Shown here one piece after another: positions 781 through 20,000 of a DNA stretch of 20,000 bases. Origin of the DNA: Chiloscyllium plagiosum (taxonomy: Eukaryota); the NCBI RefSeq assembly GCF_004010195.1, contig NC_057718.1, positions 102,818,932 to 102,838,931 on the forward strand, in the 5' to 3' direction. Position 1 is the stretch's first letter. Each line of letters begins with the position of its first letter. Below the pieces are notes generated by a model that did no database searches, was not told where the DNA came from, and saw nothing but the letters and a program-made list of their open reading frames with translations. Position numbers and translations under genes: made by a program.

Positions 781-910
781 CAAGTTCAGGTCAATCTGTA
801 AATTTAAAAAAGCTGATGATTATTAAAATGATAGGTTACACATTCCAGGAAAGGATGAATTAAAAAATAAATAACAATCCAGCTAAATACTAATAAACAG
901 ACCTTAGAGT

Positions 911-1007
911 TCTGGCAAATGGGATGAGACTAATTTAGGATATCTGGTCACAATGCATGAGTTGGAATGAAGGGTCTGCTTCAGTGTTGTAGTACTCGAT
1001 GACTCTA
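911..1007 (+). mobile_element. CR1-clade LINE 3' end fragment
   Basis: GTTGGAATGAAGGGTCTGCTTCAGTGTTGTA followed by a TCTATGACTCTA tail; homologous to 8000-8070. Confidence 0.75.
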
Positions 1008-1744: not shown

Positions 1745-2554
1745 ATAGCACGATGACCATTCTGTGTTGGCCAAGCATTGGGTCACATCTAGCACTGGCT
1801 GTTTTGGTGAACTGTTTGAAGTTTGTTCTTTGTTTGTTTGTTGGAGATTACCTCTCGATTCATGGATGATGCCCTCTCAGGATGGCAGGTACATGTCATG
1901 TTCTTTGTGTGAGTGAACAGGTCAATTCTTGACCCACAGATTGATGGACACAGAGGGTAAGATGTTCCACATGGCAATGGGACCCAGAGAACAGGATTTG
2001 CTTCCCTTTCCTTCCTTGTCTGTCACCCTTGAAGCATCCCGTTAGTCAGAGCCTGCCAACCTGTGAATGACTCTTTTATTCCCACTCTCTGCTTTCTTCC
2101 TGCTAACCAACCCTCAATTCATACAGTTTAATATATAATGGTTCCTCCCTTTCTCACAGATAACTACGGACATCCAACCCCGAATGGATAGTAATCGTAA
2201 TGACTGCTGCTTGATTGTAAATAAATATCTCTACATTTCATCTGCATCATTGCATGTCACACGCTAATCCTCAGGCCTATAATTATAATAAAATTACTTT
2301 GCTGTATAACTGATGTTTTGGTCTGCTGGGAGGAATGCCAACAATGGAGAGATTGCATCAAATGTCTATTCTAATTGTTACTTGAAATATCCCATTCTTC
2401 TGGTTCAGCTGCGTTGGAAGATGATACCTACCTCCAGCAATTGGCAGCTCAACTCCAAACCATTTGCTCAGGCCTGATTTCCCCATGGAAGGAAATGGTG
2501 GGATCAGAGAAAAAGCTAAGATTCCCTGCTTGGCATTGAGTGCAAGTCAGAGGT

Positions 2555-3239: not shown

Positions 3240-3498
3240 ATTTGGAGAGCCCTAGGCAATTTGATTGGAGTATGTAATACACTGAGGGATCTCGACAACG
3301 TGGGTATGGAAGAATCTAGAAGCAGGAGCAAGCAAAAACAGAAAGTGCTGAAGAAACTCAGCAGATCTGGCAGCACCTGTGGAGACAGAAGCAGCGTTAA
3401 TGTTTCAAATCCAGTGATCCTTCTTCAGAACTGGAATCTGTAATTAGTGTTGACTGTTTCAAATTAAAAGATTGCCCATTTAAGACAGAGATGAGGAG
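3240..3498 (+). mobile_element. Old CR1 ORF2 fragment interrupted by a PLE remnant
   Basis: GNLIGVCNTLRDLDNVGME resembles CR1 GDLIEVYKILRGLDRVD; resumes at about 3455 with AAATTAAAAGATTGCCCATTTAAGACAGAGATGAGGA. Confidence 0.55.
3329..3435 (-). mobile_element. Penelope-like element remnant (family B) with hammerhead motif
   Basis: Minus strand reads AGTT-CTGAAGA-AGGATCACTGGATTT-GAAA-CATT-AAC, then GCTGCCAGATCTGCTGAGTTTCTTCAGCACTTTCTG, shared with copies at 5518, 6795 and 16149. Confidence 0.7.
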
Positions 3499-3799
3499 TT
3501 TAGGAAGTTCAGAACACTAACCCAGTCATTTAACTACTTTGCACATTACATTGTTCTTAATGACTGGTATTCATCACACCTTAAAGTGTCTAAGGGGTTC
3601 ATGCCGTGCAAAGAACGTTCCACAACTCTGCATTTGGATGGACCTATGTTTGGCCAAGGATATTTGATAACTCAAGGGTTATTACACAGTTTGTTAAGGT
3701 ACTGAGCTGGGGAGATTCTAGATTCAGTCTGTGTGGGATAAACTAGGATGTCTCAAAAGTGATGAAGTGAAAATGATTTGGATCTGAGATACATTACTG

Positions 3800-4384
3800 A
3801 CTCATTCCACTTTAGAAATAGAACCAGTCTGACTCAAGATTGGGATAAAGACAGACTTTAACTTCATGCCTTTAATGCATTGTCTGAGCTGAGATGGCAC
3901 CTATTGCTAGAAAACCTGAGTTTATCTTGAGAATGTGACTTAAAAGAAGTTCTGGGATTTCCATATTAAAGAACTGAAACCTGCAACCAATTTTAAAAGA
4001 TGAAAGACTTAATCTAAGTTTATCACTTCAGATGCTTGACACGGTAATCTTTTGCTACAAATTCTGTGTCTTATGATCCTGCTTCAGGTCAGGGTGAATT
4101 GGCCATGCTAAACTGCCCATAGTGTTCTGTACATTAGTCAGGGGTAAATGTAAGGGAATGGGTCTGGGTGTGTTACTCTTCGGAGGGTCGGTTTGGACTT
4201 GTTGGGCCGAAGGTCCTGTTTCCATACTGTAAGGAATCTAATCTAATCTAATCTAGCCACTTGATGAAGAAGCAGCGCTCCAAAAGCTAGTGCTTCTAAA
4301 TAAACCTGTTAGACTATAACCTGGTGTTGAGTGATTTATAACTTTGTCCATCCCAGTCTAACACCAGCACCTCCACTTCATGAC
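3800..4384 (+). mobile_element. Penelope-like element 3' region (family C), interrupted by a SINE fragment
   Basis: 4256-4384 matches the right arm at 15054-15172 (TTGATGAAGAAGCAGCGCTCCAAAAGCTAGTGCTTC..CCTGGTGTTG..CCCAGTC). Assignment of the upstream part (3800-4085) rests on recalled consensus only. Confidence 0.6.
4086..4255 (+). mobile_element. HE1-type V-SINE, 5'-truncated
   Basis: GTGAATTGGCCATGCTAAACTGCCC...GGACTTGTTGGGCCGAAGGTCCTGTTTCCATACTGTA with an (AATCT)4 tail; homologous to 4450-4764. Confidence 0.85.
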
Positions 4385-4449
4385 TCATTACTGCTATTAT
4401 TCCCTTTGTTACTGGAGGTGGCCTTCTCTTGTCAACAGAGAGTCACCTG

Positions 4450-4764
4450 TTTTTTTTTTAGATTACTTACAGTGTGGAAACAGGCCCTTCGGCCCAACAA
4501 GTCCACACCGACCCGCCGAAGCGCAACCCACCCATACCCCTACATTTACCCCTTACCTAACACTACGGGCAATTTAGCATGGTCAATTCACCTGACCTGC
4601 ACATCTTTGGACTGTGGGAGGAAACCGGAGCACCCGGAGGAAACCCACGCAGACATGGGGAGAACGTGCAAACTCCACACAGTCAGTCGCCTGAGGCGGG
4701 AAATGAACCCGGGTCTCTGGCGCTGTGAGGCAGCAGTGCTAACCACTGTGCCACCGTGCTGCCC
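4450..4764 (-). mobile_element. HE1-type V-SINE, full length, young
   Basis: Minus strand has a tRNA head with A box TGGCACAGTGG and B box GGTTCATTTCC, V-domain GTGGGTTTCCTCCGGGTGCTCCGGTTTCCTCCCAC, CR1-like tail GGGCCGAAGGGCCTGTTTCCACACTGTA and poly-A; many CpGs retained. Confidence 0.92.
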
Positions 4765-5256
4765 ACTGCATTCTGACATGGTTATGGAGCCTGATGGATG
4801 ACCTGTTTGCTTTTTCATAGATGAGGATAAACGGGTGAATGGGATGTGAGTGAGGGAGTTGGTAAAGTACACAAGAAACATCAGTGTGTGAGTTGGTTGT
4901 GGTGGAGGTTGCCTGCATTTTGCTAACCCTGCATTTTCGGCCTTGCCCATTGGTTACCAGTGCCTTGTCAGGACAAGATGGATGAAGATGTGGTTAACTT
5001 CAATGGATCATCTGCATAGCCCTCTAAGCGAGTGCTGACTTGTCATTCTCTCGATTTAATTGTTATTTATAAATCAGCAACTCCATATTACATCATTATA
5101 AAATCTGAGTGTCCAGGACTTGACACCATTTTAAGAGGTAACACCTGTTTGGGTACTTCAATGCATCAAGGGGAAGTCAAAGTAACTTTCAAGACTTCCT
5201 GGGGATTCTAATTCTTTCATGTCATGTGAGTGTTGAAGGCAAGACCAACATTTGAT

Positions 5257-5448
5257 GCTGGAAAAGCACAGGAGGTCAGGCAACATCTGAGGAACTGGAG
5301 AATCGAACTTTCGAGCATTGATGTTTCGTCAATGAAGGGCTTATGCCCAAAACATGATTCTCCTGCTCCTCGGATGCTGCCTGACCTGCTGTGCTTTTCC
5401 AGCACCACACTCTCGACTCTGATCTCCAGCATCTGTCCTCACTTTCTC
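5257..5448 (+). mobile_element. Palindromic Penelope-like insertion (family A)
   Basis: Inverted arms about 5257-5318 and 5343-5403; decayed hammerhead ATGA-A-GGGC-TTAT-GCCC-AAAA; flanked by a 14-bp TSD, CCAACATTTGATGC (5245-5258) and CCAGCATTTGATGC (5449-5462). Confidence 0.8.
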
Positions 5449-5517
5449 CCAGCATTTGATGCCCATTAGTAACTACCCTCAGGAAGTGCTCTGAATATGA
5501 AAAGAACTGCTCCCGTC

Positions 5518-5625
5518 TTTCTGGTGTGAGGAAGGGCCACTCGACCCGAAACGTTAACTCTGATTTCTCCGCACCGATGCTGCCAGACCTGCTGAGCTTT
5601 TCCAGCAACTTCCTGTTTTTGTTCC
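5518..5625 (+). mobile_element. Penelope-like element remnant (family B) with hammerhead motif
   Basis: GTGAGGA-AGGGCCACTCGACCC-GAAACGTT-AACTCTG, then GATGCTGCCAGACCTGCTGAGCTTTTCCAGC. Confidence 0.75.
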
Positions 5626-5900
5626 CGACTTTCTGTGGTGGGATGACATGACTCAAATGGACCGCTAGGCCGCATTGCTGTGGGTCTGGAAACACACGTT
5701 GGTCAGACTGGGAAAGGACGGCAGATTTCCTTCTCCAAAGAAGGAAAGGCAACTAAATAACAGCATACAGCAATTTTACATACACCACTCTTGAAATAGC
5801 TTTACATTGCATACTTTCTAATTAATCAAATTTTCAAAGTCGCCAAGGTAGAATTGGATCCCATTGCTGGAGAGCAAACACAGGTCTCCAGGTTAAGTGA

Positions 5901-6006
5901 CTGGACCACTGCATCACTGGACCACTGCATCACTGGACCACTGCATCACTGGACCACTGTATCACTGGACCACTGTATCACTGGACCACTGTATCACTGG
6001 ATCACT
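5901..6006. repeat. 16-bp minisatellite CTGGACCACTGYATCA, about 6.6 copies
   Basis: Three units ending GCATCA, then three ending GTATCA, then a partial CTGGATCACT. Confidence 0.97.
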
Positions 6007-6794
6007 TCACCACTATTGCCCCACTGTGTCCTAGCATTCCTCAAAGGAGAGAGTGGTGGCACCAGGCTAAGACATAAATTGTCTTTTAGCTGAACTTATC
6101 TTGGACTGGGATCACTGAGCACAATTTTGCCCGTGTGCTACTAGACAGTAATATTTACGCCTCCACTTTTAAACCAGATATTCAAAGATTTCCTGGACTT
6201 TGAAGCTTTTAACAACAGGTTAACAAAAATAATGAAATCCCCATGGTAGTCACAGACAAGTGCTTAAAGGTAAAGTATCATATTCAATGCCCTGTAGGTT
6301 ATAATCCTGACCTCTTCCTCAGAAAAATATCTTGCAGTGTATCATCTGACAATCTCCCATTATTGTACCTTAAAGGTTCTCTGTAATTTTCCTGAAACTT
6401 AAGCAGGGGTACAACAAAGCACTTTTATTGGTCTGTTGATAATTTTTACAGCTTTTTTTTCTTACAGTATAACTGTCGTCTTATGTTACTGAATTTATTT
6501 AAAATACCTTGAGCTATAGGACAAAGCTTATATAAGTGGAAAAGAATGCTGTGTGCATACTTCATCCTGACACTGTCACAATACATTCTTTGTGAGCATA
6601 CAACAGGTATGCTGTTTCTTTAAAGTCACAAGTGATTAGATTCCTCTGGTAGATCTTTTATCTTCTTTTATCTAGTTAACCCTCAGTCCTATACTATTTA
6701 CCATGGAAATGGAGCTTTAGCTTGCTACATCTGATAAGCTCATGTCTAACTCAGCATAGCTGGAAGATGCAGTGCCATTCTGCTTTTGCTAGTT

Positions 6795-6962
6795 AAAGCA
6801 AAATGCTGTGGATGCTGGCAAAAAAGTGCTGGGGAAACTCAGCAGGTGTGGCAGAATTGGTAGAGACAGAAACGGAGTTAACGCTTTGAGTTCAGTGTGA
6901 CTCTTCTCTCTCTGCAGTTGCGGCTGCACCTGCTGAGTTTCTCCAGCATTCTCTATTTTTAT
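6795..6962. mobile_element. Palindromic Penelope-like remnant (family B)
   Basis: GTGCTGGGGAAACTCAGCAGGTG (about 6826-6848) is inverted against CACCTGCTGAGTTTCTCCAGCAT (about 6927-6949). Confidence 0.7.
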
Positions 6963-7149
6963 ATTAAATTGGAGGCGTTGGGGGGAGTGAATGGCCAATG
7001 ATGGCAGGGGATATGGATGAGTGGATAGGCAGTTAATATGGTGGGTATCACATTATTGATGCCATCTTTGGGGTAGGATTGGGGTGGGAATGGGGTCACG
7101 GTAAGGGTGAGTTTGGGGTTGTGGAGGTGGATGGAGTGGAGGAAATAAT

Positions 7150-7437
7150 GTTATTGAAATAGAGACTTAGGCTACTGCTCTGGTTCGACTCCCAACATAA
7201 CAGCGGATGGAGTGTAATCTCAATTAATGCAAGGTGAGTTCGTTTATTTTCCAAAAATCGCGTGGTTTACTAATTTCGTTGAGGAAAGGGTGCTTGCAGT
7301 CCTCACCTGATCTGCCCTAAATGGGACTCCAGAAAATCAGCAAAGTTGTTACCTCTGAAATGATCAAACAATTCATTCAGTTCAAGGACAATTAGGGATA
7401 GCTGAGCATGGTCTAGCAAACTCATCAGATCAAGAAC
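7150..7437 (+). mobile_element. tRNA-headed shark SINE (same family as 443-780), highly decayed
   Basis: B box GGTTCGACTCC; core GTCCTCACCTGATCTGCCCTA..GACTCCAGA; CCTCTGAAATG..CAGTTCAAGGACAATTAGGGAT. Confidence 0.6.
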
Positions 7438-7567
7438 GGTTAGGGAAGGCCATATTCCATGAAAAGAATGGTGGTGTTTAGGTTATTTCATAAATAGTTT
7501 GGATGGCCAGTCATCAGTAAAATTCAAATGGCTCATAAGGAAGAAACTTGATTGGACTGGTTTATGT

Positions 7568-8070
7568 CTTGAAAGGGTTCAGAAAAGATGTACGAGAATG
7601 TTGCCAGGGTTGGAGGATTTGAGCTATAGGGAGAGGCTGAACAGGGTGGGGCTGTTTTCCCTGGAGCGTCGGAGGCTGAGGGGTGACCTTATAGAGGTTT
7701 ACAAAATTATGAGGGGCATGGATCGGATAAATAGGCAAAGTCTTTTCCCTGGGATTGGGGAGTCCAGAAATAGATGGCATAGGTTTAGGGTGAGAGGGGA
7801 AAGATATAAAAGAGACCTAAGGGGCAAGTTTTTTATGCAGACGGTGGCACGTGTATGGAATGAGCTGCCAGAGGAAGTGGTGGAGGCTGGTACAATTGCA
7901 ACATTTAAAAGGCATTTGGATGGGTATATGAATAGGAAGAGTTTGGAGGGATATGGGTTGGGAGCTGGCAGGTGGGACTATATTGGGTTGGGAGATCTGG
8001 TTGGCATGGACGGGTTGGACCGAAGGGTCTGTTTCCATGCTGTACATCTCTATGACTCTATGACTCTATG
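7568..8070 (+). mobile_element. CR1-clade (HER1-like) LINE, 5'-truncated ORF2 C-terminus plus 3' UTR
   Basis: Open frame LERVQKRCTRMLPGLEDLSYRERLNRVGLFSLERRRLRGDLIEVYKIMRG...WNELPEEVVEAGTIATFKRHLD; ends in an octamer (TCTATGAC)n tail. Confidence 0.95.
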
Positions 8071-8206
8071 AATGGATTTCACTTAGTCCCCCTATTCACC
8101 TAGCGTCTCTTTTGTTGCATACATTTCCTGATACCAGTTCAAGTATGAGGAGTCATATTTATCAGTCTTAAAATCTAACTGCTTGGGTCCAATGGATAGA
8201 GTTATG

Positions 8207-8275
8207 GAATCCCTACAGTGTGGAAACAGGCCCTTCGGCCCAATAAGTCCACACTGACCCTCCAAAGAGTAACCC
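8207..8275 (-). mobile_element. HE1-type SINE 3' fragment
   Basis: TACAGTGTGGAAACAGGCCCTTCGGCCCAATAAGTCCACAC is nearly identical to 4468-4508. Confidence 0.85.
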
Positions 8276-8297
8276 TGTATTTACCTCTGTTATCCTG

Positions 8298-8396
8298 TAA
8301 ACAAAAAACAGAAATTGCCAGGAAGGTTCAGCAGGCCTACAATACCTATGGAGAGAATCAGAGCTAACCTTCAGGTTGTGCGACCTTTCATCAAAA
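8298..8396 (-). mobile_element. Penelope-like remnant (family B), decayed hammerhead
   Basis: Minus strand TTGATGA-AAGGTCGCACAACCT-GAAGGTTAGCTCTG...CCTGCTGAACCTTCCTGGCAATTTCTG. Confidence 0.6.
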
Positions 8397-8524
8397 TAAT
8401 TGAATATTGATTTAATCCTGATTTCTTTGCCTGCCATCCTTGTCCCAACAATATGATGCGCCAATACATACTCTTCCACCTTCTTCTCTCTGAATCATAG
8501 ACCGTTATCACACTAGACTAGACT

Positions 8525-9085
8525 AGTCATTTGCAAGGCCTTGGTAAGATGACATCTTGAATTCCATGTGTAGATTTGGTCTTTATATTCAAGGAAGAAG
8601 ATACTTCCATTGGAGGCAGTACCACTATTCGATTGGTCCCTGGGAGGAGACAGGGTTATCTTCTGATGAGAAGCTGAGTAAATTGGGTGGATGCTCTCTG
8701 TAGCTTGGAGGCATGAGAGATGATTTAGCTGCAGCATGCAGGATTCTGAAGAAACTTGGTGGAATCCACACTGAGAGGCTTTTGCACCTAATCAGGGATA
8801 TCAGAAAACAAGGGTGCAGTCTCAGGTTACAGCTGAGATATGGAGAAATTGCTTCACTCAGAAGGTTGTGAATCTTTAGAATTCACTGCCCCAGATGATT
8901 GAAGATCCTCCACTTTTAAATACATTTAAGCTAAGAGAGACAGATATTTGTTCCCTTGTGGTGTCAAGGGTTACGGGGAGTGTGTGAGGAAAACACGGAT
9001 GAAACTCAAGTTCACCCATGATTGTATCAGCCAGTAGAATAGACTCAATAGGTCGAATGGTCTATTTCTGTGCCTATTTGTTATT
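8525..9085 (+). mobile_element. Old CR1 LINE 3' fragment
   Basis: Decayed KALVR.HLE..V..WS.Y.RK.IL.LEAV motif; TTCACTCAGAAGGTTGTGAATCTT (FTQKVVNL); 3' UTR GGTCGAATGGTCTATTTCTG. Confidence 0.8.
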
Positions 9086-9174
9086 TTATTTTGTTCTTGT
9101 TTACCTGGCCATGAATTCACCATCAATCTTTGCCTTCTCTGCTCTGTAAGTACGGCAATTTGTGAAAAGTCACA

Positions 9175-9445
9175 TTGTGTCAATCTTTTCATTTTTGCAC
9201 TCATCTGGACAACTTACAAGAATGTCAATTCAAGAGGAAAAACATCATTTACACTTCATGACAGGACAGTGCTGATTAGTAGAGGCATTGCCATGGCAAA
9301 TGCAACAATTAATGATGATTGACAATTAATTGCCAGTCTTTGTTTAAATTTTAAACCAAGCAGCTTGACTCTGATTGGTCAGGGTGCTGCCCTGGGAAAT
9401 GAACAAGTAAATAGCTGTCACCAGTCTTGAAAAGTTGAAACAGAT
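9175..9445 (-). mobile_element. Penelope-like element 3' region (family D)
   Basis: Homologous to 11490-11720 and 14758-15330 (TTTAAATTTTAAACCA.GCAG.TTGACTC.GATTG); minus-strand hammerhead remnant GTC-CAGATGA-GTGCAAAAAT-GAAA. Confidence 0.6.
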
Positions 9446-10304
9446 GGCAGAATTTCTGCTTGGATGATTTCCGCAAAAAAGCTAGCATCTAAAATCAGAG
9501 ATCCAGATTTATGATCATTCCAACTTTTCAATAGGAAAATCTCCCATCACCTTCCTTAAAGCACTCTGAGAGCTTTATACCCAGCACAGAGTCTTCCAAA
9601 ATATGTGACAGTCTTATTTCTGTTCGATATTGCAAAGTAAGCCCACATTAGGTAAGAGAATAACTAGGGTTGGGTGGATCTCTGTGAGTTACAGCTTTCA
9701 GTTTCATTGACAAGAGAAATCAATTGAAGCAAGATTGAATGACTGGTGAGTGGAGACAGGATCTTGAAAGGCTGAGGGTGTTCCAGTTACAGCAGGAAAT
9801 AACCAGCCATTCTGTGACAGGGGATACTGCACATTGGGCAGATGAACACAGGAATAGAAAACATGCCTGAAACAGGCTCAGGCTGAAATCACCCCAACCC
9901 TGATTAATTAGCCAGGAAAATATTCATAACCAAATTCTCCATGTCATTGTGTTCAGCCCTGTGCCTTAAATTGTCCACAAAAATACAGCAGTAACAATCA
10001 GAATTAATTATTTCCACCGGTTGACCTTGTGTCCAATCAAGTGGTTATCATATGATAAAGCTGTTCGGGCTGAGACAGTTCCTAACATTAACCTGTATAT
10101 TTGTGGCTGCAATTCCAATCTTAGGAATAATGCAGCTACTGCGCCATGAGCTATCATATATATATTTACCTACACTATTGGCAGTAGTCCAGTACTCACT
10201 GCTTTTGGAAATATATTTTAATTCTTAACTACTATTCATAGTAATTAGGTTGTAATTTATTTGGAACAATTAAACAGCAATGATTCAGAGATAATGATCG
10301 CTTA

Positions 10305-10693
10305 GTTATCTACATTTTAAGTTCAGGATGTTCCAAAATTCCGTACAGTATTTAAAGTGTGGTCACAGCTGTATGCCAGCAGGCAAATTGCACACAGGAA
10401 GCTTCCACAAACAGGAATAGGATGGTGACCAGATACTCTGTTCTTATGATGTTGATTGAGAGATAAATATTAGCCAGGACACTGGAGATGACACCACGGC
10501 TTGTCTTCATGTCACAGGATCTTTTACATCCACGAGAGAGAACAGCTTAATATCTATTCCAAAAGGCAGTAGCTTTAACATGTACCGTCACTCTCTGCTC
10601 TTTGATGGGCCGTTATCTGTCATTTCTGTGCTGAGTCACAGGCTGAGACCTGAACCCACAACCTCCTGTGACTGAGCATTATGAAATGAGCTA
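10305..10693 (-). mobile_element. DeuSINE (SacSINE1/AmnSINE1-like Deu domain)
   Basis: Minus strand GTGGATGTAAAAGATCC...GTGTCCTGGCTAATATTTATCTCTCAATCAACATCA...ATCTGGTCA...TGTTTGTGGAAGCTTCCTGTGTGCAATTTG matches the recalled Deu-domain consensus; B-box-like GGGTTCAGGTC near 10647-10657. Confidence 0.8.
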
Positions 10694-10711
10694 CAAATCA
10701 CTCACATAAAC

Positions 10712-10805
10712 TGATAGATGCATAGATGGATAGACATATGAATAGATGTAAAGACAGAAGGATAGATCTAAAGACAGTCAGGTTGATAGAACGATAGATG
10801 GATAG
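10712..10805. repeat. Degenerate (GATA/TAGA)n microsatellite
   Basis: Repeated ATAGATG, GATAGA and AAGACAG units. Confidence 0.7.
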
Positions 10806-11119
10806 TATTCCAAGATATTATTTAAGTGATAAACAAGCAGTAAATTTGTCATCGATTAAAGTCTGTAATGAGTTTTTATGTATCCATTCTATATTTATGT
10901 AGAAGTGTACTTGCAAAGTATGTCCTCATATTAATATTGATTTTTTTTTACTAGACATGTTCATATTATTTATCTCTTTGACTTTCAGGAATGTATGCAG
11001 AATGATCAATGTTATAAATAAAATCCAATAGTTGTAGAGTTTTCTCCAGCAGAGATTAGTGGAAAGGTGGGAGAAATGAGTAAAAACACACATGTTCAAG
11101 TGAGACAGACAGACTAACA

Positions 11120-11375
11120 GTTTTCCATTATTGACCTACTTAAGCTCTTTGTGATTTTGGACACCATCATCCAATTTTCTCTGAGCCTTCTACCTTTAAG
11201 GAGAACAATCCCAGCTTGTTCAGTCTGTGCACAGAGGCATAGCCCCTCATCCCTGGAAGCTTTATGGAAGTTCCAGAGGACCCTCTCCAAACACCCTCCA
11301 TTTCCTTGATGATGCATCAAGCCCAGAAGTAGACTCTAGTGGGCTGGGTTGGTATTTGATACAGGTTGAACATGA
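11120..11375 (-). mobile_element. Old CR1 ORF2 fragment
   Basis: Minus strand gives CLERV..NF and LKGRRLRENWMMVSKITKSL, matching CR1 LERRRLRGDLIEVFKIMKG. Confidence 0.75.
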
Positions 11376-11489
11376 ATTTATGGTTATGAACTAGAGACAG
11401 GATTCAATTTTTCAAAGCAAAATTGGAATTTTTGATTATTAACAGTCATATGGTTGCAAAAAAACTTGAGTATAGACCCAATTTGTTGA

Positions 11490-11720
11490 AAATTCTCATC
11501 TTGAATTCATCAGGACCTTTTGCAAGAAACTCAGTGGAAAAGACAACTTTAATTCTGTGTGACAGGACTGTAATGATTGGTTGGAAAGTGATTAGTAGAG
11601 GTGTTGTCATTTGAGAATGCACCAGTTCTCAGGGAAATGCCATGATAAATCAGACTCACCTGCTTGGTTTAAAGCTTAAATAAAACCTGGCAGTCAACTG
11701 TCAATTATCATTAACTGGTA
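11490..11720. mobile_element. Penelope-like family D copy with internal inversion
   Basis: 11490-11627 is colinear with 9185-9310; 11628-11719 is the reverse complement of the sequence that follows in the 9300-9397 copy. Confidence 0.65.
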
Positions 11721-12664
11721 GAGAAGACACTTTGATTAATCAGGAGTGGATTGCAACAATTTTGGGGGTTTTAAAATAAAGAGGTTTGTGGACACCACTG
11801 AACCAATTATAATTAGATTTAAGGCACACAGTACACCTCCATAGTGACTGGCAAAGGATGTTTGCAATGATCAGTGGCCATTTCACAACTCATTGCACAT
11901 GACACGGAGCCAGCCAAGTTGCGCAAAATTAGTAAGGCTCACAGAAATCCATCAATGTCTCTTAAAATTCAATTCACTGTAATCCGCCACTCCAAAATAT
12001 AATTATGCTCATTTATGAGATATTTAAGACCTCCAGAATCAATCGAGTCTACCCAATCGGGGACACACTTAGTCCTATCCATGGCTCGTAATAAGATAAC
12101 AACTGTTCTTTACCAGGGATTGATATTATCGCATTGCATTTCAAATCATCAATCCCTCTCATGTGATTGATCCTGTCAACAAAAGGATTAGAAAATAGAG
12201 GACAACTGATATGAGATGAATTATTTTCGATTTAAGGTCATTATGTGGAATTTTAGATACCACTACTCAAGAATGTAATTGGATCTAATATTGATTGATT
12301 TTTGAATTACTTTGAACAATTGCTGCTTAAGTGTATAATTTTATGGTCCTGCAGAAAGTATTTTGTATGCCCGCACGCCCAAGAAGAATGAGCTAGAGAG
12401 GAATCATTAAAGTTTTGTAAAGTTACGGAGCAAAAACTCATTGTATCCCACCACAGTGGGGAGGTGATGGCTGAAAACCATAAAGTTGAATTATGATCAT
12501 GAATAACTTGAAGCAACACAGGTCATATTAAACTGACAAAGTTTATATACACATATATAATAGAGAACATAATTTAAACAAGCTTTGAATTTTGATGCAA
12601 CTGCCTCAAATGGAAACCTTTCACAAGGGGAATATATTTTTTAAAGGGTTCTGAAGTTTTTTTC

Positions 12665-12900
12665 TTCAAACTTGAACGGGGACATCGTTAGCAAGGCCTT
12701 AATTATTTTTGGCCATCTTTAATCATTCTTGACCTGAATGACTGACAAAGTCAGAGGGCAGTGAAGAATCAACCACATCGCTGTGGGTCTAGAGTTACAA
12801 GTAGGTCAGGCCAGAGTAAGGACAGCAGATTTCCTTCCCAATTATTAACAGTTGCAATGGTCATTGTTGAAACTAACACAACTGAATTTAAATTCCACTA
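12665..12900 (-). mobile_element. tRNA-headed shark SINE (same family as 443-780), partial
   Basis: TCAGAGGGCAGTGAAGAATCAACCACATCGCTGTGGGTCTAGAGTTACAAGTAGGTCAGGCCAG..AAGGACAGCAGATTTCCTTCCC is the reverse complement of the core at 610-690. Confidence 0.75.
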
Positions 12901-12911
12901 AATTTTGTGGG

Positions 12912-13051
12912 TGTTGTTCTTAGGGCTAAAAGGGATCAAGGGGTGTGGGGAGAAAGCAGGAACAGGGGACTGAGCTGGATGATGGGATTGAATGGTGGAG
13001 CAGGTTTGTCGGGCCGAATGGCCTACTCCGCCTGTTTTCTATGTTTCTATG
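12912..13051 (+). mobile_element. CR1 LINE 3' end
   Basis: GGGATCAAGGG..GGGGAGAAAGCAGG...GAATGGTGGAGCAGG..GGGCCGAATGGCCTACTCC followed by a (TTCTATGT)2 tail. Confidence 0.85.
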
Positions 13052-13204
13052 GATTGGATTGAGTGAAAGCTATCTTCTGTAATGGGACAAGGAATTCCTT
13101 TGTTGCCTGGATCATCCATTTCCCAATTACTCTCCATCCATTATTGTCCTGAAATCTTGTCCCTTGAGTTGCCTGACAAGTCTGAACAAAAGCAGTGTAT
13201 GCTT

Positions 13205-13493
13205 GGGCCAACATGGTGGCTCAGTGGTTAGCACTGCTGTCTTGCAGTGCCAAAGACCTGGGTTTGATTCCACCCTCAAATGGCTGCCTCTGTGGAGTTT
13301 GCACATTCTCCCTCTGTCTGTGTGAGTTTCCTCCAGATGCTCTGGTTTCCAAAGATGTGGAGGTTAGGGTGGATAGGTCATGCTAAATTGTGCAGCATAG
13401 GTGGGTTAGCCATGGGGTGAGGCTGGGTGGGATGCCTTTTTGAGGGTTGGTACTGAACAGCTTATTTTTGTAGGGTACGCATTCTATGATTCT
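13205..13493 (+). mobile_element. HE1-type V-SINE, older copy
   Basis: A box TGGCTCAGTGG, B box GGTTTGATTCC, decayed V-domain, ATTCTATGATTCT tail. Confidence 0.85.
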
Positions 13494-13811
13494 TGAGATA
13501 ATTCTCAGTGCATCCACTCAACAAATTCTCTTGTGGTTTCATGGGCACAATCTGTGGATCCAAAAGGGGAAATGAATAATTTCAGATACTTTGCTTATTG
13601 TGTCAGAAACCCATCAGTCTAAAGCAAAGCCTGATCCAAGGTGAAAGTCACGTTGTTTTGTGAGGATTATGTGCAATTATTAAGGTTGGGATTCAAACCT
13701 CGTCTGTGTTGTAGCTTAATAACAAATAAGAATTAAGAATTAACTTGTTGGTTGCAGGATTGATGTCGACAAGAGGATCCTGAGTTTTAAAGAAAAGCGG
13801 AAACATTGCAA

Positions 13812-14148
13812 CATAAACAGCGAAGTATTTCAGAGGCTGGGAATCCAAAATGGAAACAGATGAGGCTGGAAATTGTCCACAAGCCGGACATAGTGAGAAA
13901 AAGAGCTGGCGTCTTTCTGTTCTAATGAGAGCTCATCAAACCTTTAGCCTTCATCAGTTTCCTAATGAAGGGCTTTTGCCCAAAATGTCAATTTTCCTGC
14001 TTCTCAGATGCTGCCTGACCTGCACCAGCACCACTCTAATCTAGACTCTGATTTCCAGCATCTGCAGTCCTCACTTTTGCCTAACCTTTAGCCCTGTTTC
14101 CTTCTCCAGCTATGCTGCTTCACTGTGGAATACTTCCAACATTTTCTG
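13812..14148. mobile_element. Old palindromic Penelope-like remnant (family B), host to a younger insertion
   Basis: GTTCTAATGAGAGCTCATCAAACC..TTAGCCCTGTTTCCTTCTCCAGCTATGCTGC resembles the family B hammerhead region; decayed left arm at 13812-13905. Confidence 0.5.
13950..14082 (+). mobile_element. Penelope-like insertion (family A)
   Basis: CTAATGA-A-GGGC-TTTT-GCCC-AAAATGTC...CAGCATCTGCAGTCCTCACTTT; perfect 11-bp TSD AACCTTTAGCC at 13939-13949 and 14083-14093. Confidence 0.8.
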
Positions 14149-14759
14149 CCATAATGTCATCCCTGTTGGTGGAAGACTCAGTTTCAATATGACAAATATG
14201 CAATCAAATTGAAAAATTCACTTAAATAATGATTCTGCTCTGAATACGACCTGCATTCATATCAAAACTGATGGTGGGCTGTTGGCAGTTTCTGTTTGAC
14301 TTGTAATGTTTTTATAACTTGCTTTCACATTGAATAGTGGTAGGTCTTTATTATCATGGCTATTTATAGTCCATTTGAATATGCTGTATGTGCCAGGCTT
14401 CGTGATTGTAATGACTGTGAAATTGTCAGAGTTCACGGTCATTACTCTGTGAAATTATCAGTAACTTTGGCTTCCACACATTTGCTGTTAAAGAGGGAAA
14501 CTCAGAAATTACTGTCAGTGATTCCCTCTCGGCCTTAGGTTATGTTGTTGAAGCTAAGATTTTAGAAATTGCTTGGTTAAGCAGCAACTTTCACTTTTTA
14601 TGTTATTCATCTGTCTGAAAATATTTGCTTTAGAAAGCTGTAACTTGTTTGATGTGTAACTCACTCTTCATTAACTCACTCTTCATTTTTGTACTAATAC
14701 ATTATTAGTCAGACTGGTGGAACACTCAAGTTGAGTTTTTCTGTAAAAGGGACTAATCC

Positions 14760-14793
14760 TGTCAAACTTTTTCATCTTGTACTCTTCAGGACA
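14760..14793 (-). ncRNA. Minimal type I hammerhead ribozyme motif (PLE-associated)
   Basis: Minus strand TGTC-CTGAAGA-GTACAAGAT-GAAA-AAGTT-T-GACA: stem I TGTC/GACA, intact CUGANGA and GAAA boxes, very short stem II; activity unproven. Confidence 0.5.
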
Positions 14794-14949
14794 ATTTGCA
14801 AGAATGCCAATTCAAGGGGAAAGTCACCGTTTACACTGCATTAGAGGACTGTACTAATTAGTTGGCATGTGGACTATGATTTGTAGAGGTTTTGTCATGA
14901 CGAATGTACATATTATTGCTGATTGACAGTTAAATGCCTGGCTTAACTT

Positions 14950-15172
14950 AGTTACAAATCACACAACACCAGGTTATAGTCCAACAGGTTTAATTGGAAG
15001 CACTAGCTCTCAGAGCGCCGCTCCTTCATCAGGTGGTTGTCTCCAATCAGGTGGATGAAGGAGCGGCGCTCTGAAAGCTAGTGCTTCCAATGAAACCTTT
15101 TGGACTACAACCTGGTGTTGTCTGATTTGTAACTTTGTACACCCCAGTCCAACACCAACACCTCCAAATTAT
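14950..15172. mobile_element. Palindromic Penelope-like insertion (family C)
   Basis: 81-bp inverted arms at 14950-15030 and 15054-15134 with 5 mismatches; each arm has a hammerhead motif with stem II GGAGC-GGC-GCTCT. Confidence 0.85.
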
Positions 15173-16148
15173 GGCTTTATTTAAATTTTAAACCAGGCAG
15201 TTTGACTCCGATTGCTCTGAGAAACGGTCCAGCGAATGGCTGTCATCTATTTTGGTGAGTTAAAACAAGTGCATCATGTTCTTGCAAAAACAAAGAACTT
15301 TTTGGACCCAAAAATAACTAATATTATACTTGCAGAATGCCAAATTTCTCCATTATAGTCAGAAATGTTCAAAATTGTTTGTTAAGCAATAATCCATCTA
15401 TTAATCCCAAGAGTAAAAATCAACCTTTATTTTGTTCTGTTAAAAATGGTTAACAACTGATGTGTAATCCATACCTTATATTTCCCAGTCTGCTGTCTGT
15501 GAGAATCCTTCAATGTGATTGGCTGCTGAGCATTTGTGATGAAATCAATGTCACTGGGGTTCCCTACAGCTAGAGATGGAATGAAATTAACATTGACCTT
15601 GGTGAAATCCTTACCACAGAGATCATTAGATTCACAGGCAACCTCCATCAGAGTCAGCAATGACCATAGTTACTTTGTGCTGACATCAAAATTCAGGTCA
15701 TTTTATACTTAGATTTGATCATCCACCTCTTGTTTAAAATTGTCATGGTGTAGAGTTTCCACTCGATTGTCAGAACGTCACAAAGAATGGCAGAATTTTC
15801 AGCACAAATTAAGTTTAGCGCAAACTGAGTTTCTGTGACCTTTGTTGCTGGTTTAGAAACCAGTTAACTTAGAGCTGCTGACATTAACGTAGCTAGCCGC
15901 ACCCAAGCACACTTTACTCACCTGAGCTGGTTTCTGTTCATTGTGCCTGTTTGTTGGCCCTTTCTCTTGGCACAAAGACACCAACAAGCACAAGACTGCC
16001 TCACTTAAATATATCAATTAAACCCACAAAAGGCAACTATTTTGCAAAAATGATTTCATTTCAAACTGCTGTCAGATTGAAGTGTTTTATGCAAAGTGTA
16101 AATTTTTGTCCTCAGTTCCTTGGTCCTTTCACGAGTGAGAAGGGTGTG

Positions 16149-16367
16149 TCAGCAGGTCTGGCAACATCTGGGGAGAGAGAAAACAGAGTTGTTTCGATAT
16201 GATTGTTCTTCAAAATACTCTTCTTCAGGGGATCTGAAGAAGACTCATATCAGACTCAAAACATTAACTCTGTTTCACTCTCCACAGTTGCTGCCAGACC
16301 TGCTGAGCTTCTCCAGATATCTCTGTCTTTGTCTCAGCTTTGCAACATCCACAGTATTTTGCCTTTA
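16149..16367. mobile_element. Palindromic Penelope-like remnant (family B)
   Basis: TCAGCAGGTCTGGCAAC..GAGAGAAAACAGAGTT is inverted against AACTCTGTTTCACTCTC..TGCCAGACCTGCTGA; centre TCTTCTTCAG-GGGAT-CTGAAGAAGA. Confidence 0.8.
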
Positions 16368-16389
16368 TTATGGGAACATTTTTGCTTTA

Positions 16390-16520
16390 TTTACTCTGGA
16401 AACACCTCTCAAGATTTTGAGCGCTTCGATCAGATGTCCCCTCGACATTCTCTTTTCCAAGGAGAACAGTCCCATCTTTCACCTCTTTTCACCCCTCTAC
16501 CTGAAATCTTTCTCCCCTCC
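16390..16520 (-). mobile_element. Old CR1 ORF2 fragment
   Basis: Minus strand GLFSLEKRMSRGHLIEALKILRG. Confidence 0.7.
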
Positions 16521-16658
16521 TTTAAGACCCACGTCAGTGACCAGGTTTTACCTCTCTCTCCTCAATATCTTCGTCCGATATACAGTGCTGAACATTATTT
16601 GATCACCATCCCTGTGAATGCACCGTTTGCAAATGGACGGTCTCCCAAAACTAACATA

Positions 16659-16856
16659 AGGAGAGAGTGAGGGCTACAGATGCTGGAGAGTCAGAGTTGA
16701 GAGTGTGGTGCTGGAAAAGCACAGTAGGTCAGGCAGCATCTGAGGAGCAGGAGAGTTGACGTTTCGGGCATAAGCCCTTGTTCATTTCAAAACATTGACT
16801 CTCCTGCTCCTCGGATGCTGCCTGACTTGCTGTGCTTTTCCAGCACCACACTTTTC
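16659..16856 (-). mobile_element. Palindromic Penelope-like insertion (family A)
   Basis: Arms about 16702-16766 and 16788-16852; minus strand GGGC-TTAT-GCCC-GAAACGTC; 19-bp TSD at 16644-16662 and 16860-16878. Confidence 0.85.
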
Positions 16857-16943
16857 CACCCCAAAACTGTTATAAGGAAACTTTTGTTTGCTCTCTGAGT
16901 GCGTCATCGATCTGTGGACTTCTTTTCCGCATTAAGTACTTGG

Positions 16944-17170
16944 TGAAATAACTCCACAGAGGCTGGTATCCCGTCACCAAGTCACTGTTTATTTACATGA
17001 GGAGGGTCCTTGACACTGATCCAGCTCCCTCAGAGCCAGCTCTCAGACTGAGCAGAACCTCTGACACGCCTGTTTATATCTGTCAGCCAGGGCTCCCTGA
17101 TTGGACCAGATTAACAGCCCCAATCAGATTCCATGAGGTCCACCTGGCTGACCTCATTCCAAGCACTATG
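16944..17170 (-). mobile_element. Probable solo LTR of an LTR retrotransposon
   Basis: On the minus strand, in order: two CCAAT boxes (17097-17127), TATAAA (17073-17078), AATAAA (16988-16993), terminal CA at 16944. Near-TSD CTTGG/CTGGG. It cleanly splits a CR1 fragment; the 5' TG is not preserved. Confidence 0.7.
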
Positions 17171-18261: not shown

Positions 18262-18591
18262 GGGGCAGCACAGTGTCTCAGTGGTTAGCGCTGCTGCCTC
18301 ACAGTGCCAGGGACCCGAGTTCAGTCCCAGCCTCAGACAACTGTCTCTGTGGAGTTTGTACATTCTCCCCGTGTCTGTGTGGGTTTCCTCCGGGTGCTCC
18401 GGTTTCCTCCCACAATTCAAAGATGCACATTAGCCATACTAAATTCCCCCATAGTGTGCAGGGGATGAGCAGGTTCGGTAAATATAGGGTTATAGGGGTA
18501 GGGGTGGTGGGTCTGGTTAGGATGCTCTTTGCAGGGTCGGCATGGATTTGATGGGCTGAATGGCCTGCTTCCACACTGTAAGGATTCTATG
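18262..18591 (+). mobile_element. HE1-type V-SINE, near full length
   Basis: tRNA head GGGGCAGCACAGTGTCTCAGTGGTTAGC, intact V-domain GTGGGTTTCCTCCGGGTGCTCCGGTTTCCTCCCAC, tail GGCCTGCTTCCACACTGTAAGGATTCTATG. Confidence 0.9.
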
Positions 18592-18814: not shown

Positions 18815-19400
18815 ATTTCAAGTTTTGCTTTCAATTCTGTTGTCACATTAAAGGAAGGATGTGGAGGTTTCAGAAAGGGTGCAGAGGAGGTTTACCAGGA
18901 TGCTGCCAGGATTAGAGGGTATGGGCTATAAGGAGAGACTAGAAAAACTCAGGTTGTTTTCTCTGGAGTAGCGGAGGCTGAGGGGAGACTTCAAGTCTAT
19001 AAAATTGTGAGATGCATTGATAGGGCTGACAGTCAGAATCTTTGTCCCAGAGTTGAAATGTCTAATACTAGGGGGCATGCATTTAAGGTGAGAGGGGAAA
19101 GTTCAAAGGGGAGAGGGGGCAAGTTCAAAGGGGAGAGGGGGTAAGTTCAAAGGGGATGAGAGGGGCAAATTATTTAAACAGAGCGCAAAAGGAGTGTGGA
19201 ACGCACTGCCTGGGGTGGTGGTGGAGTCAGATATGATAGGGGCATTTAAGGCACTTTTAGATAAGCACATGAATATATAAGGAATGGAGGGATACGGGCC
19301 AAGGGCAGGTAGAAGACATCAGTTTAATTTCGTGTCACATTCAGCACATCGTGGGCTAAAGGGCCTTTTCCTGTGCTGTACTGTTCTGTTCTGTGTTCTA
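18815..19400 (+). mobile_element. CR1 LINE 3' fragment (ORF2 C-terminus plus UTR), disrupted
   Basis: [45 protein letters not shown]...WNALPGVVVES; tail GGGCCTTTTCCTGTGCTGTACTGTTCTGTTCTGTGTTCTA. Confidence 0.92.
19090..19154. repeat. 21-22-bp tandem triplication inside CR1
   Basis: GAGAGGGG(G)NAAGTTCAAAGGG at 19090-19110, 19111-19132 and 19133-19154. Confidence 0.9.
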
Positions 19401-19738: not shown

Positions 19739-20000
19739 ATAGAACATAGAACATAGAAGAATACAGCACAGTACAGGCCCTTCGGCCCTCGATGTTGCGC
19801 CGGTCCAAGCCCACCTAACCTACACTAGCCCACTATCCTCCATATGCCTATCCAATGCCCGCTTAAATGCCCATAAAGAGGGAGAGTCCACCACTGCAAC
19901 TGGCAGGGCATTCCATGAACTCACGACCCGCTGAGTAAAGAACCTACCCCTAACATCTGCCCTTTACCTACCACCCCTTAATTTAAAGCTATGCCCACTC
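19739..20000 (-). mobile_element. Young CR1 LINE 3' end, continuing beyond the window
   Basis: Minus strand GHSFKLRGGR*RADVRGRFFTQRVVSSWNALPVAVVDSPSLWAFKRALDRHME; (TTCTATG)n tail; CpGs retained. Confidence 0.92.

Follow-up and report, generated by a model that had tools for sequence, protein, structure and literature searches.

The window, a 20,000-nucleotide stretch of the genome of Chiloscyllium plagiosum, holds 14 minimal type I hammerhead cores in 13 insertions. This bears out the initial annotation, which had counted about 14 short repeats with a hammerhead layout, and the stems and palindromes that it assigned to families A–D agree with the window copies. When each core is placed at the coordinate of its C3 or equivalent, family A cores lie at +5329, +13962, and −16785; family B at −3428, +5526, −6912, +16234, and −8394; family C at +4261, −15032, and +15052; and family D at −9207, −11513, and −14789. 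In the common module, a minimal type I hammerhead is followed by an arm of 60–90 nt and then by an optional tail. By the intervals drawn in our analysis, hammerhead-bearing Penelope-like element (PLE) ends take up about 12–13% of the window.

The insertions are designated by family letter. B1 (3329..3432, minus strand) is a family B monomer with C3 at 3428 and every conserved core letter present; it has a G10.1-U11.1 wobble, and its stem III palindrome is broken. The family C copy C1 (4062..4382, plus strand) carries a tail and a core at 4261 (C3T, G12A), and is interrupted by a SINE at 4086–4254. The upstream consensus built from RNA reads of family C agrees with positions 4062–4073, and the 5′ end may reach further. 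A1 (5253..5448) is a family A fold-back, with a tailless left arm at 5253–5318 (minus) and a right arm from 5329 (plus) that has a decayed core and a 41-nt tail; a 14-bp target duplication flanks it (5245–5258/5449–5462). B2 (5526..5619, plus), a family B monomer without a tail, retains GAAACGTT intact, has C3G, and lies within a target duplication of 13–16 bp (5508–5523/5620–5635). In the family B fold-back B3 (6793..6962), the left arm (minus) bears a core remnant at 6912 and a 34-nt tail, and the right arm (6904–6960, plus) begins just 3′ of the cut site. B5 (8290..8396, minus; core 8394) is a strongly decayed family B monomer. D1 (9165..9430, minus; core 9207, U4A) extends about 220 nt 5′ of its core and has a weak 8-bp flanking repeat (9163/9428). 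In a second family D copy, D2 (11465..11717, minus; core 11513, A14G), the 5′ part at 11623–11717 is inverted relative to 11484–11622.

Further along, A3 (13950..14082, plus) is a tailed family A unit with its core at 13962 (G5A, G12A), preceded by an inverted copy of 8–11 nt of its own box 1 and flanked by an exact 11-bp target duplication (13939–13949/14083–14093). D3 (14735..15270, minus) retains all conserved letters in its core at 14789, with a stem II of only 2 bp and a stem I of 5 bp, and is interrupted by C2 (14950..15171), a family C fold-back nested within it. The left arm of C2 (14950–15040, minus) has no tail, and its core at 15032 carries A14G, with the cut site after 15004; the right arm, from 15052 (plus), ends in a 37-nt tail. 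The arms match at 76/81 positions, and the 12-bp flanking repeat (14939–14950/15172–15183) is weak by itself. The family B fold-back B4 (16149..16365) has a left arm at 16149–16212 (minus) and a right arm from about 16229 (plus) with a core at 16234 (G12A), extending 59 nt past the paired part. Finally, the family A fold-back A4 (16663..16859) has a left arm (minus) from 16779 with stem II and GAAACGTC intact and a 39-nt tail, a right arm at 16783–16852 (plus), and a 19-bp target duplication with three mismatches (16644–16662/16860–16878).

Thus 5 of the 13 insertions carry a shorter, head-to-head inverted arm (arm identity 84–94%), and the paired cores sit on opposite strands. The initial annotation did not contain these five fold-backs with a one-sided tail. 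In all five the tail is on one arm only (41, 34, 37, 59, and 39 nt in A1, B3, C2, B4, and A4, respectively), while published PLE tails are 30–40 bp at one end (PMC3846280; PMC8557442), with a length of 31 bp also on record. There are mini-inversions in A3 and B4 and a 5′ inversion in D2, and the three family D copies in the window have neither fold-back nor tail. Target duplications of 11–19 bp were found at 4 of the 10 insertions tested: those of A1, A3, A4, and B2 score 10–11, none of 150 random flank pairs scores above 8, and the flanks of B1, B3, B4, C2, D1, and D2 stay within chance. The five fold-backs are predicted to fold into extended hairpins with energies from −81 to −139 kcal/mol, and three of them have flanking duplications, as would be expected of MITE-like DNA transposons in which the hammerhead boxes had arisen by chance or were merely carried along. 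We give this reading almost no weight, as one-sided tails and variable junctions largely refute it: the arms are asymmetric, eight insertions are not palindromic, duplication length runs from 11 to 19 bp, and the hammerhead layout is common to three unrelated lineages.

The cores themselves belong, as had been proposed, to the PLE class of minimal type I hammerheads (min-HHRs), whose traits recur from copy to copy. The CUGANGA and GAAA boxes and the UH are all present in the family consensus; family A has GAAACGTC at 16758–16765, box 1 of family C is seen in the copy with its core at 15032, and families B and D each have one window copy with all core letters. In families A, B, and C, stems I and II pair in register, G10.1-C11.1 is found, and an extra base lies between positions 9 and 10.1. 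Family D lacks this base, its stem II has 2 bp, and all three copies have T at 11.1, where we infer C11.1 from CpG decay. Stem I sequences differ among the lineages, yet they pair in register (B 3–4 bp, C 3 bp, D 4–5 bp, A 2 bp). The stem III palindrome, ACGT in A and B and AGCT in C, is intact in single copies, and in family D it is degenerate in all three. The four families that had been called distinct reduce to three lineages (A/B, C, and D): A and B are sisters sharing a 3′ block (alignment score 45, shuffle maximum 24), and C and D are unrelated to A/B and to each other.

A hammerhead descriptor search, which had been proposed as a check, finds intact cores above chance. With the descriptor CTGANGA, stem II of at least 2 bp, GAAA, 2 or 4 nt, UH, and stem I of at least 2 bp, two matches without mismatch occur in the window (B at −3428, D at −14789), against none in 40 of 40 dinucleotide shuffles. 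Allowing one mismatch and a stem II of at least 3 bp gives 5 matches, four of them repeat cores, against 0.82 ± 0.83 in shuffles; with two mismatches the excess over shuffles is gone or weak (3 vs. 1.9; 7 vs. 3.1, null maximum 8; 3 vs. 0.95). A covariance model trained on 15 non-window motifs from metagenomes ranks five A/B cores at the top (E 2e-7 to 0.04) and gives a family C core E 0.72, in a test that is partly circular because the window supplied the pattern used to fetch the training motifs. Family D cores were not detected by this model, and pair counts on its 15 motifs are biased, the rows having been selected for pairing. Among 28 Rfam matches up to E 10 there was no hammerhead family; the microRNA-type hairpin matches, all below gathering score, are due to the fold-backs.

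That the repeats are PLE-derived remnants, as initially claimed, is supported by fold-backs, one-sided tails, target duplications, and hammerheads. Membership is argued from structure, since no RT or GIY-YIG ORF is linked to any family. Neither domain was found with Pfam in the 149 of 165 window frames of at least 46 aa that were scanned, nor in 33 + 150 frames from the hammerhead-bearing metagenome loci listed. Protein searches with family A translations, as well as DNA searches, likewise returned no linked ORF (weak negatives). The only match of the representative-protein search, a repetitive stick-insect protein, was rejected. The family motifs have no match in viral and prokaryote collections; nine viral loci matching a looser motif have little or no stem II, lie within open reading frames, and were treated as chance. 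A metagenome scan gave at least 117 loci. Among the 117 listed, none has blastn similarity to the window, and 14 have a self-inverted surround, most of 150–260 bp; in 13 of these 14, stem II is hammerhead-like.

Min-HHRs were described in the pseudo-LTRs (pLTRs) of metazoan PLEs by Cervera and de la Pena (2014; PMC4209133). As here, they have a type I fold, CUGANGA and GAAA boxes, an extra base before stem II, a short helix I, a palindromic 15.2/16.2, and G10.1-C11.1 (here in A, B, and C); they form many sequence families per genome, mostly as dispersed, single, truncated copies, some in close opposite-strand pairs. Stem II is 2–5 bp here vs. 7–8 bp in the Schistosoma families, and the density looks far above the 4,000–9,000 motifs of coelacanth and Xenopus, although the descriptors differ. 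Cartilaginous fish are not named in the available text of that paper or in two of its supplement files. PLE insertion units with an inverted pLTR, a tail, and a target duplication are also known (Arkhipova et al., 2013, PMC3846280; Craig et al., 2021, PMC8557442). They share the head-to-head inverted, 5′-truncated copy, the tail on one end, the short target duplication, and palindromes at the junction; unlike them, the units here are only 100–270 bp with no ORF, and their duplications reach 19 bp, vs. 8–10 bp in rotifer. Poseidon of Anolis carolinensis offers an in vitro parallel for the insertion route proposed here (Frangieh et al., 2024, PMC11167929): both target strands are nicked and extended, reverse transcription starts at two adjacent internal sites bounding the tail, and the main template is uncut RNA, with no RNA-seq ends at the cut site. 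The Poseidon ORF begins at stem II, whereas no matching ORF start was found in protein searches with family A translations.

It is thus very probable that the repeats are dead-on-arrival pLTR end modules from three lineages (A/B, C, and D) of endonuclease-positive (EN+) Penelope-like retroelements in a cartilaginous-fish genome. By analogy with published PLE biochemistry, the element protein would nick both strands of AT-rich DNA, and reverse transcription would begin at two adjacent internal RNA sites, the end and the start of the tail. Extension from both nicks would then produce two cDNAs, joined to each other by their 5′ ends close to the hammerhead, giving a fold-back with a tail on one arm. 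Because the copies extend across the cut site, their template would be RNA that had not been cleaved. Folding of the hammerhead in the parent element would be dimeric, by way of the 4–6 nt palindrome.

Against this explanation stand the missing RT or GIY-YIG link, the six insertions whose flanks stay within chance, and the features of family D (neither fold-back nor tail, a 2-bp stem II, and a putative C11.1). The 5′ ends of the insertions also cluster at the upstream edge of the hammerhead, a pattern not expected from simple random 5′ truncation. An alternative, which we hold to be unlikely, is that the copies come from short non-autonomous masters: hammerhead-headed RNAs of 120–135 nt with their own transcription, using PLE protein in trans, and either SINE-like or monomer progeny of non-LTR retrozymes. 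Indeed, 8 of 14 cores begin no more than about 10 nt from C3, with a target duplication or the inverted arm as their boundary, and two more probably do so. In three runs, the loose-end consensus of family A seems to fade out some 5 nt upstream of C3, and a 2026 preprint traces retrozymes to pLTRs and includes dispersed monomers in its counts (Li, Clavereau and Pollet, bioRxiv 10.64898/2026.07.22.740005). These non-LTR retrozymes, present in one chondrichthyan, resemble the repeats here in being non-coding, pLTR-derived, dispersed as monomers, and equipped with a type I hammerhead, but their definition requires head-to-tail tandem units, two or more of which have a complete hammerhead. The window has no tandem array of units (none of five Tandem Repeats Finder rows lies over the repeats), so the repeats are not retrozymes as defined, and the earlier term “retrozyme-like” is not supported in its published sense. 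Moreover, C1, all three D copies, and the family C RNA reads extend upstream of the core, and the copies reach 5′ beyond the cut site, which unit-length cleavage products would not. The junction is different in each fold-back, which excludes a fixed palindromic master.

Whichever RNA served as template, most copies are dead, in accordance with the initial annotation: 12 of 14 cores deviate at a conserved position or are without box 1. The cause it gave, CpG decay or core mutation, is right in part, the C11.1-G12 CpG having decayed in 12 of 14, but A −16785 and B −6912 are without box 1 because the arm begins inside it. The CpG has become CA (G12A) in five cores and TG in seven, and is kept in two. 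This 5:7 ratio of the lethal G12A to the harmless change does not differ from even (p 0.77), which fits neutral decay. The hammerheads in the window copies are thus likely decaying neutrally, with no likely function.

In public DNA runs, the families occur genome-wide and in abundance. Repeat density is therefore a property of the genome, and the “unusually high” local density suggested earlier is not peculiar to the window. Loose-end consensus from 816, 772, and 136 contigs in three runs shows the CTGATGA box intact ahead of stem II in family A, and in two DNA runs A14 of family C is intact in 99% of depth. One raw, poly(A)-primed RNA run of the same species contains 1,423 family C reads (577 and 846 by poly-T loose ends) with poly(A) 27–30 nt behind the cut site, which they traverse uncut. 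The signal maps on C2 to 14955..14994 (minus), with the hexamer ATTAAA at 14994–14989 (AATAAA at 4299 in C1), addition at positions matching 14977 and 14974, and a GU-rich stretch behind. Read ends do not pile up at the cut site in this run, which could not retain the 30-nt 3′ product. Since the upstream letters of the reads are not those of the window locus, whose unique flanks have an RNA depth of 0–0.7, the reads come from other loci and are uninformative on the window copies. Such a poly(A) hexamer is no general feature behind hammerheads: 50 metagenome motifs have 6 in sense and 8 in antisense. In the searchable literature, outside Repbase, Dfam, and most subscription journals, no report of a poly(A) site within the pLTR of a PLE was found, nor any publication on shark PLE hammerheads; “polyadenyl” is absent from the available text of PMC2377424, and that of PMC11167929 makes no mention for Poseidon of such a site between ribozyme and tail.

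The use of this site in same-species RNA, and the retention of all conserved core letters in B1 and D3, might suggest that some copies were exapted as host RNA elements, either as active intronic ribozymes or as poly(A) sites ending host transcripts. This is very improbable: G12A is not depleted (5 of 12 CpG losses), in B1 and D3 the closing pair is G-U, the palindrome is broken, and no intact same-strand partner lies nearby, and the poly(A) reads derive from other loci. Within the pLTR end-module reading, a tentative and rather doubtful extension is that the family C pLTR is laid out like a retroviral R-U5, with short stumps as copies of the mRNA 5′ end. The order would be the hammerhead, the poly(A) site 27–30 nt past the cut, and finally a pair of start sites for reverse transcription. 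If polyadenylated in the 3′ pLTR, an mRNA would keep start sites only in its 5′ pLTR, and the enzyme would mostly copy the first 120–135 nt of its own mRNA, from tail to cap. The abundant hammerhead-headed stumps would then not be truncated 3′ ends, longer copies would come only from read-through RNA, and by cleaving, the hammerhead may serve as a switch to strip off the poly(A) tail.

These repeats add shark-type examples to the hammerhead/PLE class described in 2014, and for the most part are of an ordinary, known kind. The point worth keeping is the family C poly(A) site between the ribozyme and the tail. Its position implies that the RNA behind the integrated copies had been neither cleaved nor polyadenylated at that point, and it suggests a testable explanation for the abundance of short PLE end-pieces.

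Alignment of the window repeats yields 14 hammerhead cores spread over 13 insertions, in line with the "about 14" dispersed repeats of the initial annotation. A zero-mismatch hammerhead descriptor finds two sites in the window, both inside repeats, whereas 40 shuffles yield none. Allowing one mismatch, with a 3-bp stem II, gives five sites vs. 0.82 in the shuffles; at two mismatches the window has little or no excess left. Because most single copies are too decayed to serve as stand-alone proof, the case is built on families. The four proposed initially reduce to three lineages with different stems in the same frame: families C and D match neither A/B nor one another, but A and B share a 3' block behind the ribozyme (alignment score 45, shuffle maximum 24). 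In the order A, B, C and D, stem I measures 2, 3-4, 3 and 4-5 bp, and stem II 4, 5, 5 and 2 bp. Stem III is ACGT in A and B, AGCT in C, and a degenerate 6-mer in D, which is the weakest hammerhead case of the lineages. With 197 nt between them, an A core at 5329 and a B core at 5526 share the (+) strand; since the ACGT palindrome occurs in both families, a mixed A/B dimer is conceivable, although the core of each copy is broken. Upstream of the family D hammerhead (9178-9401, and other copies), CCAAT-like boxes and an AT-rich stretch look promoter-like by eye.

Five of the insertions have a head-to-head fold-back structure, their 3' ends facing outward and their arms 84-94% identical. In all five, one arm outruns the other by 34-59 nt, an asymmetry that rules out MITEs. 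Ten insertions (all except B5, C1 and D3) were compared with 150 random flank pairs. The target duplications of A1 (14 bp), A3 (11), A4 (19) and B2 (13-16) outscore all 150, and the other six (B1, B3, B4, C2, D1 and D2) have none above the random pairs. C2 has a 12-bp flanking repeat located exactly at both points where family D resumes, and the 5' part of D2 is inverted without duplication. An inverted pseudo-LTR (pLTR), a one-sided tail and a short duplication are described among the hallmarks of endonuclease-positive Penelope-like elements (PLEs), and the window insertions share them (PMC3846280, PMC8557442). Close hammerhead pairs on opposite strands appear in a 2014 account (PMC4209133). 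In agreement with the PLE origin proposed initially, the repeats are very probably pLTR remnants with minimal hammerheads, a known kind, whose PLE membership rests on structure: fold-backs, one-sided tails and target duplications.

Read by eye from the alignments, 17 of 18 arms retain sequence to either side of the cut site, and only the B3 right arm begins ~8 nt behind it; the template was thus uncut RNA. An Anolis protein is described as nicking and extending both strands independently of the ribozyme, with two internal start sites bounding the tail (PMC11167929). Priming would then proceed from both nicks, one per start site, and the two cDNAs would be joined near the hammerhead, leaving a fold-back with a one-sided tail. 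This presumably resembles L1 twin priming. The 5' edge lies within ~10 nt of C3 in 8/14 cores (10/14 with two uncertain ones), as a short non-autonomous master RNA giving rise to hammerhead-headed copies would predict, but such a start is equally expected if transcription begins immediately ahead of the ribozyme, with the enzyme copying its own mRNA's 5' pLTR, and we consider the master RNA unlikely. In Drosophila Penelope, the start site is placed 46 bp upstream of an intron, and the end of that intron maps to helix I (PMC2377424, PMC4209133). Retrozymes, as defined in a recent preprint, require tandem units (Li, Clavereau and Pollet 2026, bioRxiv 10.64898/2026.07.22.740005); the window has none of these repeats in tandem, and the suggestion of retrozyme-like families is abandoned. 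Once inserted, the hammerhead motif decays. The C11.1-G12 CpG is kept in two of the 14 cores, CA in five and TG in seven. By established hammerhead chemistry, G12A abolishes a catalytic base, whereas a wobble pair still forms after C11.1U; CA is therefore the form that selection for cleavage would be expected to deplete. In this small sample, CA:TG is even (5:7, p 0.77; 5:4 without family D).

Four public sequencing runs were compared with 13850-16950 at 82% likeness. Two DNA runs place 214,123 and 181,144 contigs there, with a summed depth (not equal to copy number) that over family A reaches 4.7 and 6.5 million and over unique flanks is mostly 9-50; the hammerhead families are plainly genome-wide. 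Among the best-supported rows listed, box 1 (CTGATGA) is intact upstream of family A stem II in the loose-end consensus of three runs (816, 772 and 136 contigs), and A14 accounts for 99% of depth at 15009 in both DNA runs, making the A14G of the C copy there a private change. From 14077 onward, at the family A 3' end, the loose-end consensus of two RNA-type runs goes on CTCCTAG. Judged from sequence, this tail end looks like a putative splice acceptor (branch point, pyrimidine tract, AG); in family B, a comparable pyrimidine tract and CAG occur mid-arm.

Roughly 2% of a single-cell run, poly(A)-primed and from the same species, was read. Poly-T loose ends gather at positions matching 14974 (846 reads) and 14977 (577). 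In element sense, they correspond to poly(A) additions 30 and 27 nt past the cut site and 15 and 12 nt past A(A/T)TAAA, and a GU-rich stretch follows, although source loci may hold genomic A-runs and host and element transcripts are indistinguishable. Family C reads pass through the ribozyme and reach its upstream flank (371 and 665 loose ends), with A14 intact in 2,123/2,248. They form no read-end pile at the ribozyme in this poly(A)-primed run, where a cleaved 3' product would be too short to appear. The upstream letters of the reads differ from the window locus, and the reads therefore originate from family C copies elsewhere, perhaps few in number. Since the poly(A) site lies upstream of both insertion 3' ends, polyadenylated RNA cannot have served as template for the 3' end of these insertions. 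Families A, B and D display no such signal, and we found no paper placing a poly(A) site after the hammerhead and ahead of the tail.

The window DNA is repeat-rich. One SINE family, which we take to resemble elasmobranch HE1, has copies at 4086-4254 (+), which interrupts C1 of family C, 4459-4764 (-), 8204-8275 (-), 13205-13390 (+) and 18262-18589 (+). Tblastn with homologues places CR1-type LINE 3' fragments at 908-1007 (+), 7445-8068 (+), 8523-8936 (+), 11194-11385 (-), 16371-16478 (-), 18846-19400 (+) and 19747-20000 (-). For 7463-8068, the top species-named match comes from a skate (Leucoraja erinacea, 58% protein identity), with bird LINE proteins ranking below (34-48%), in keeping with a cartilaginous fish. 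A tandem array of 7.2 copies of a 16-bp unit (94% matches) occupies 5900-6014, and 2160-2225 (+) is a short exon-like stretch behind a pyrimidine tract and CAG, with a stop at its end and no host gene identified. Of the 165 window stop-to-stop frames with 46 aa or more, 149 were run against Pfam, none of them with a match at a curated cut-off. The linked RT and GIY-YIG frames envisaged initially did not emerge: window and metagenome-locus frames, family A protein searches and DNA scans, all weak negatives, tied neither to any family.

A metagenome motif scan returned at least 117 loci with at least 120 matches. Stem II is at least 3 bp, in AT-rich DNA, in 53 of the 120 matches listed, and the surround is self-inverted at 14 of the 117 loci listed. 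Ten contigs (L005, L010, L012, L014, L028, L037, L053, L069, L084 and L109), AT-rich and apparently animal, hold a minimal hammerhead within a 150-260 bp fold-back (~440 bp in L014). A poly(A) hexamer behind the motif is not a general trait (6 sense and 8 antisense among 50). The hammerhead fold-back layout is not limited to sharks.
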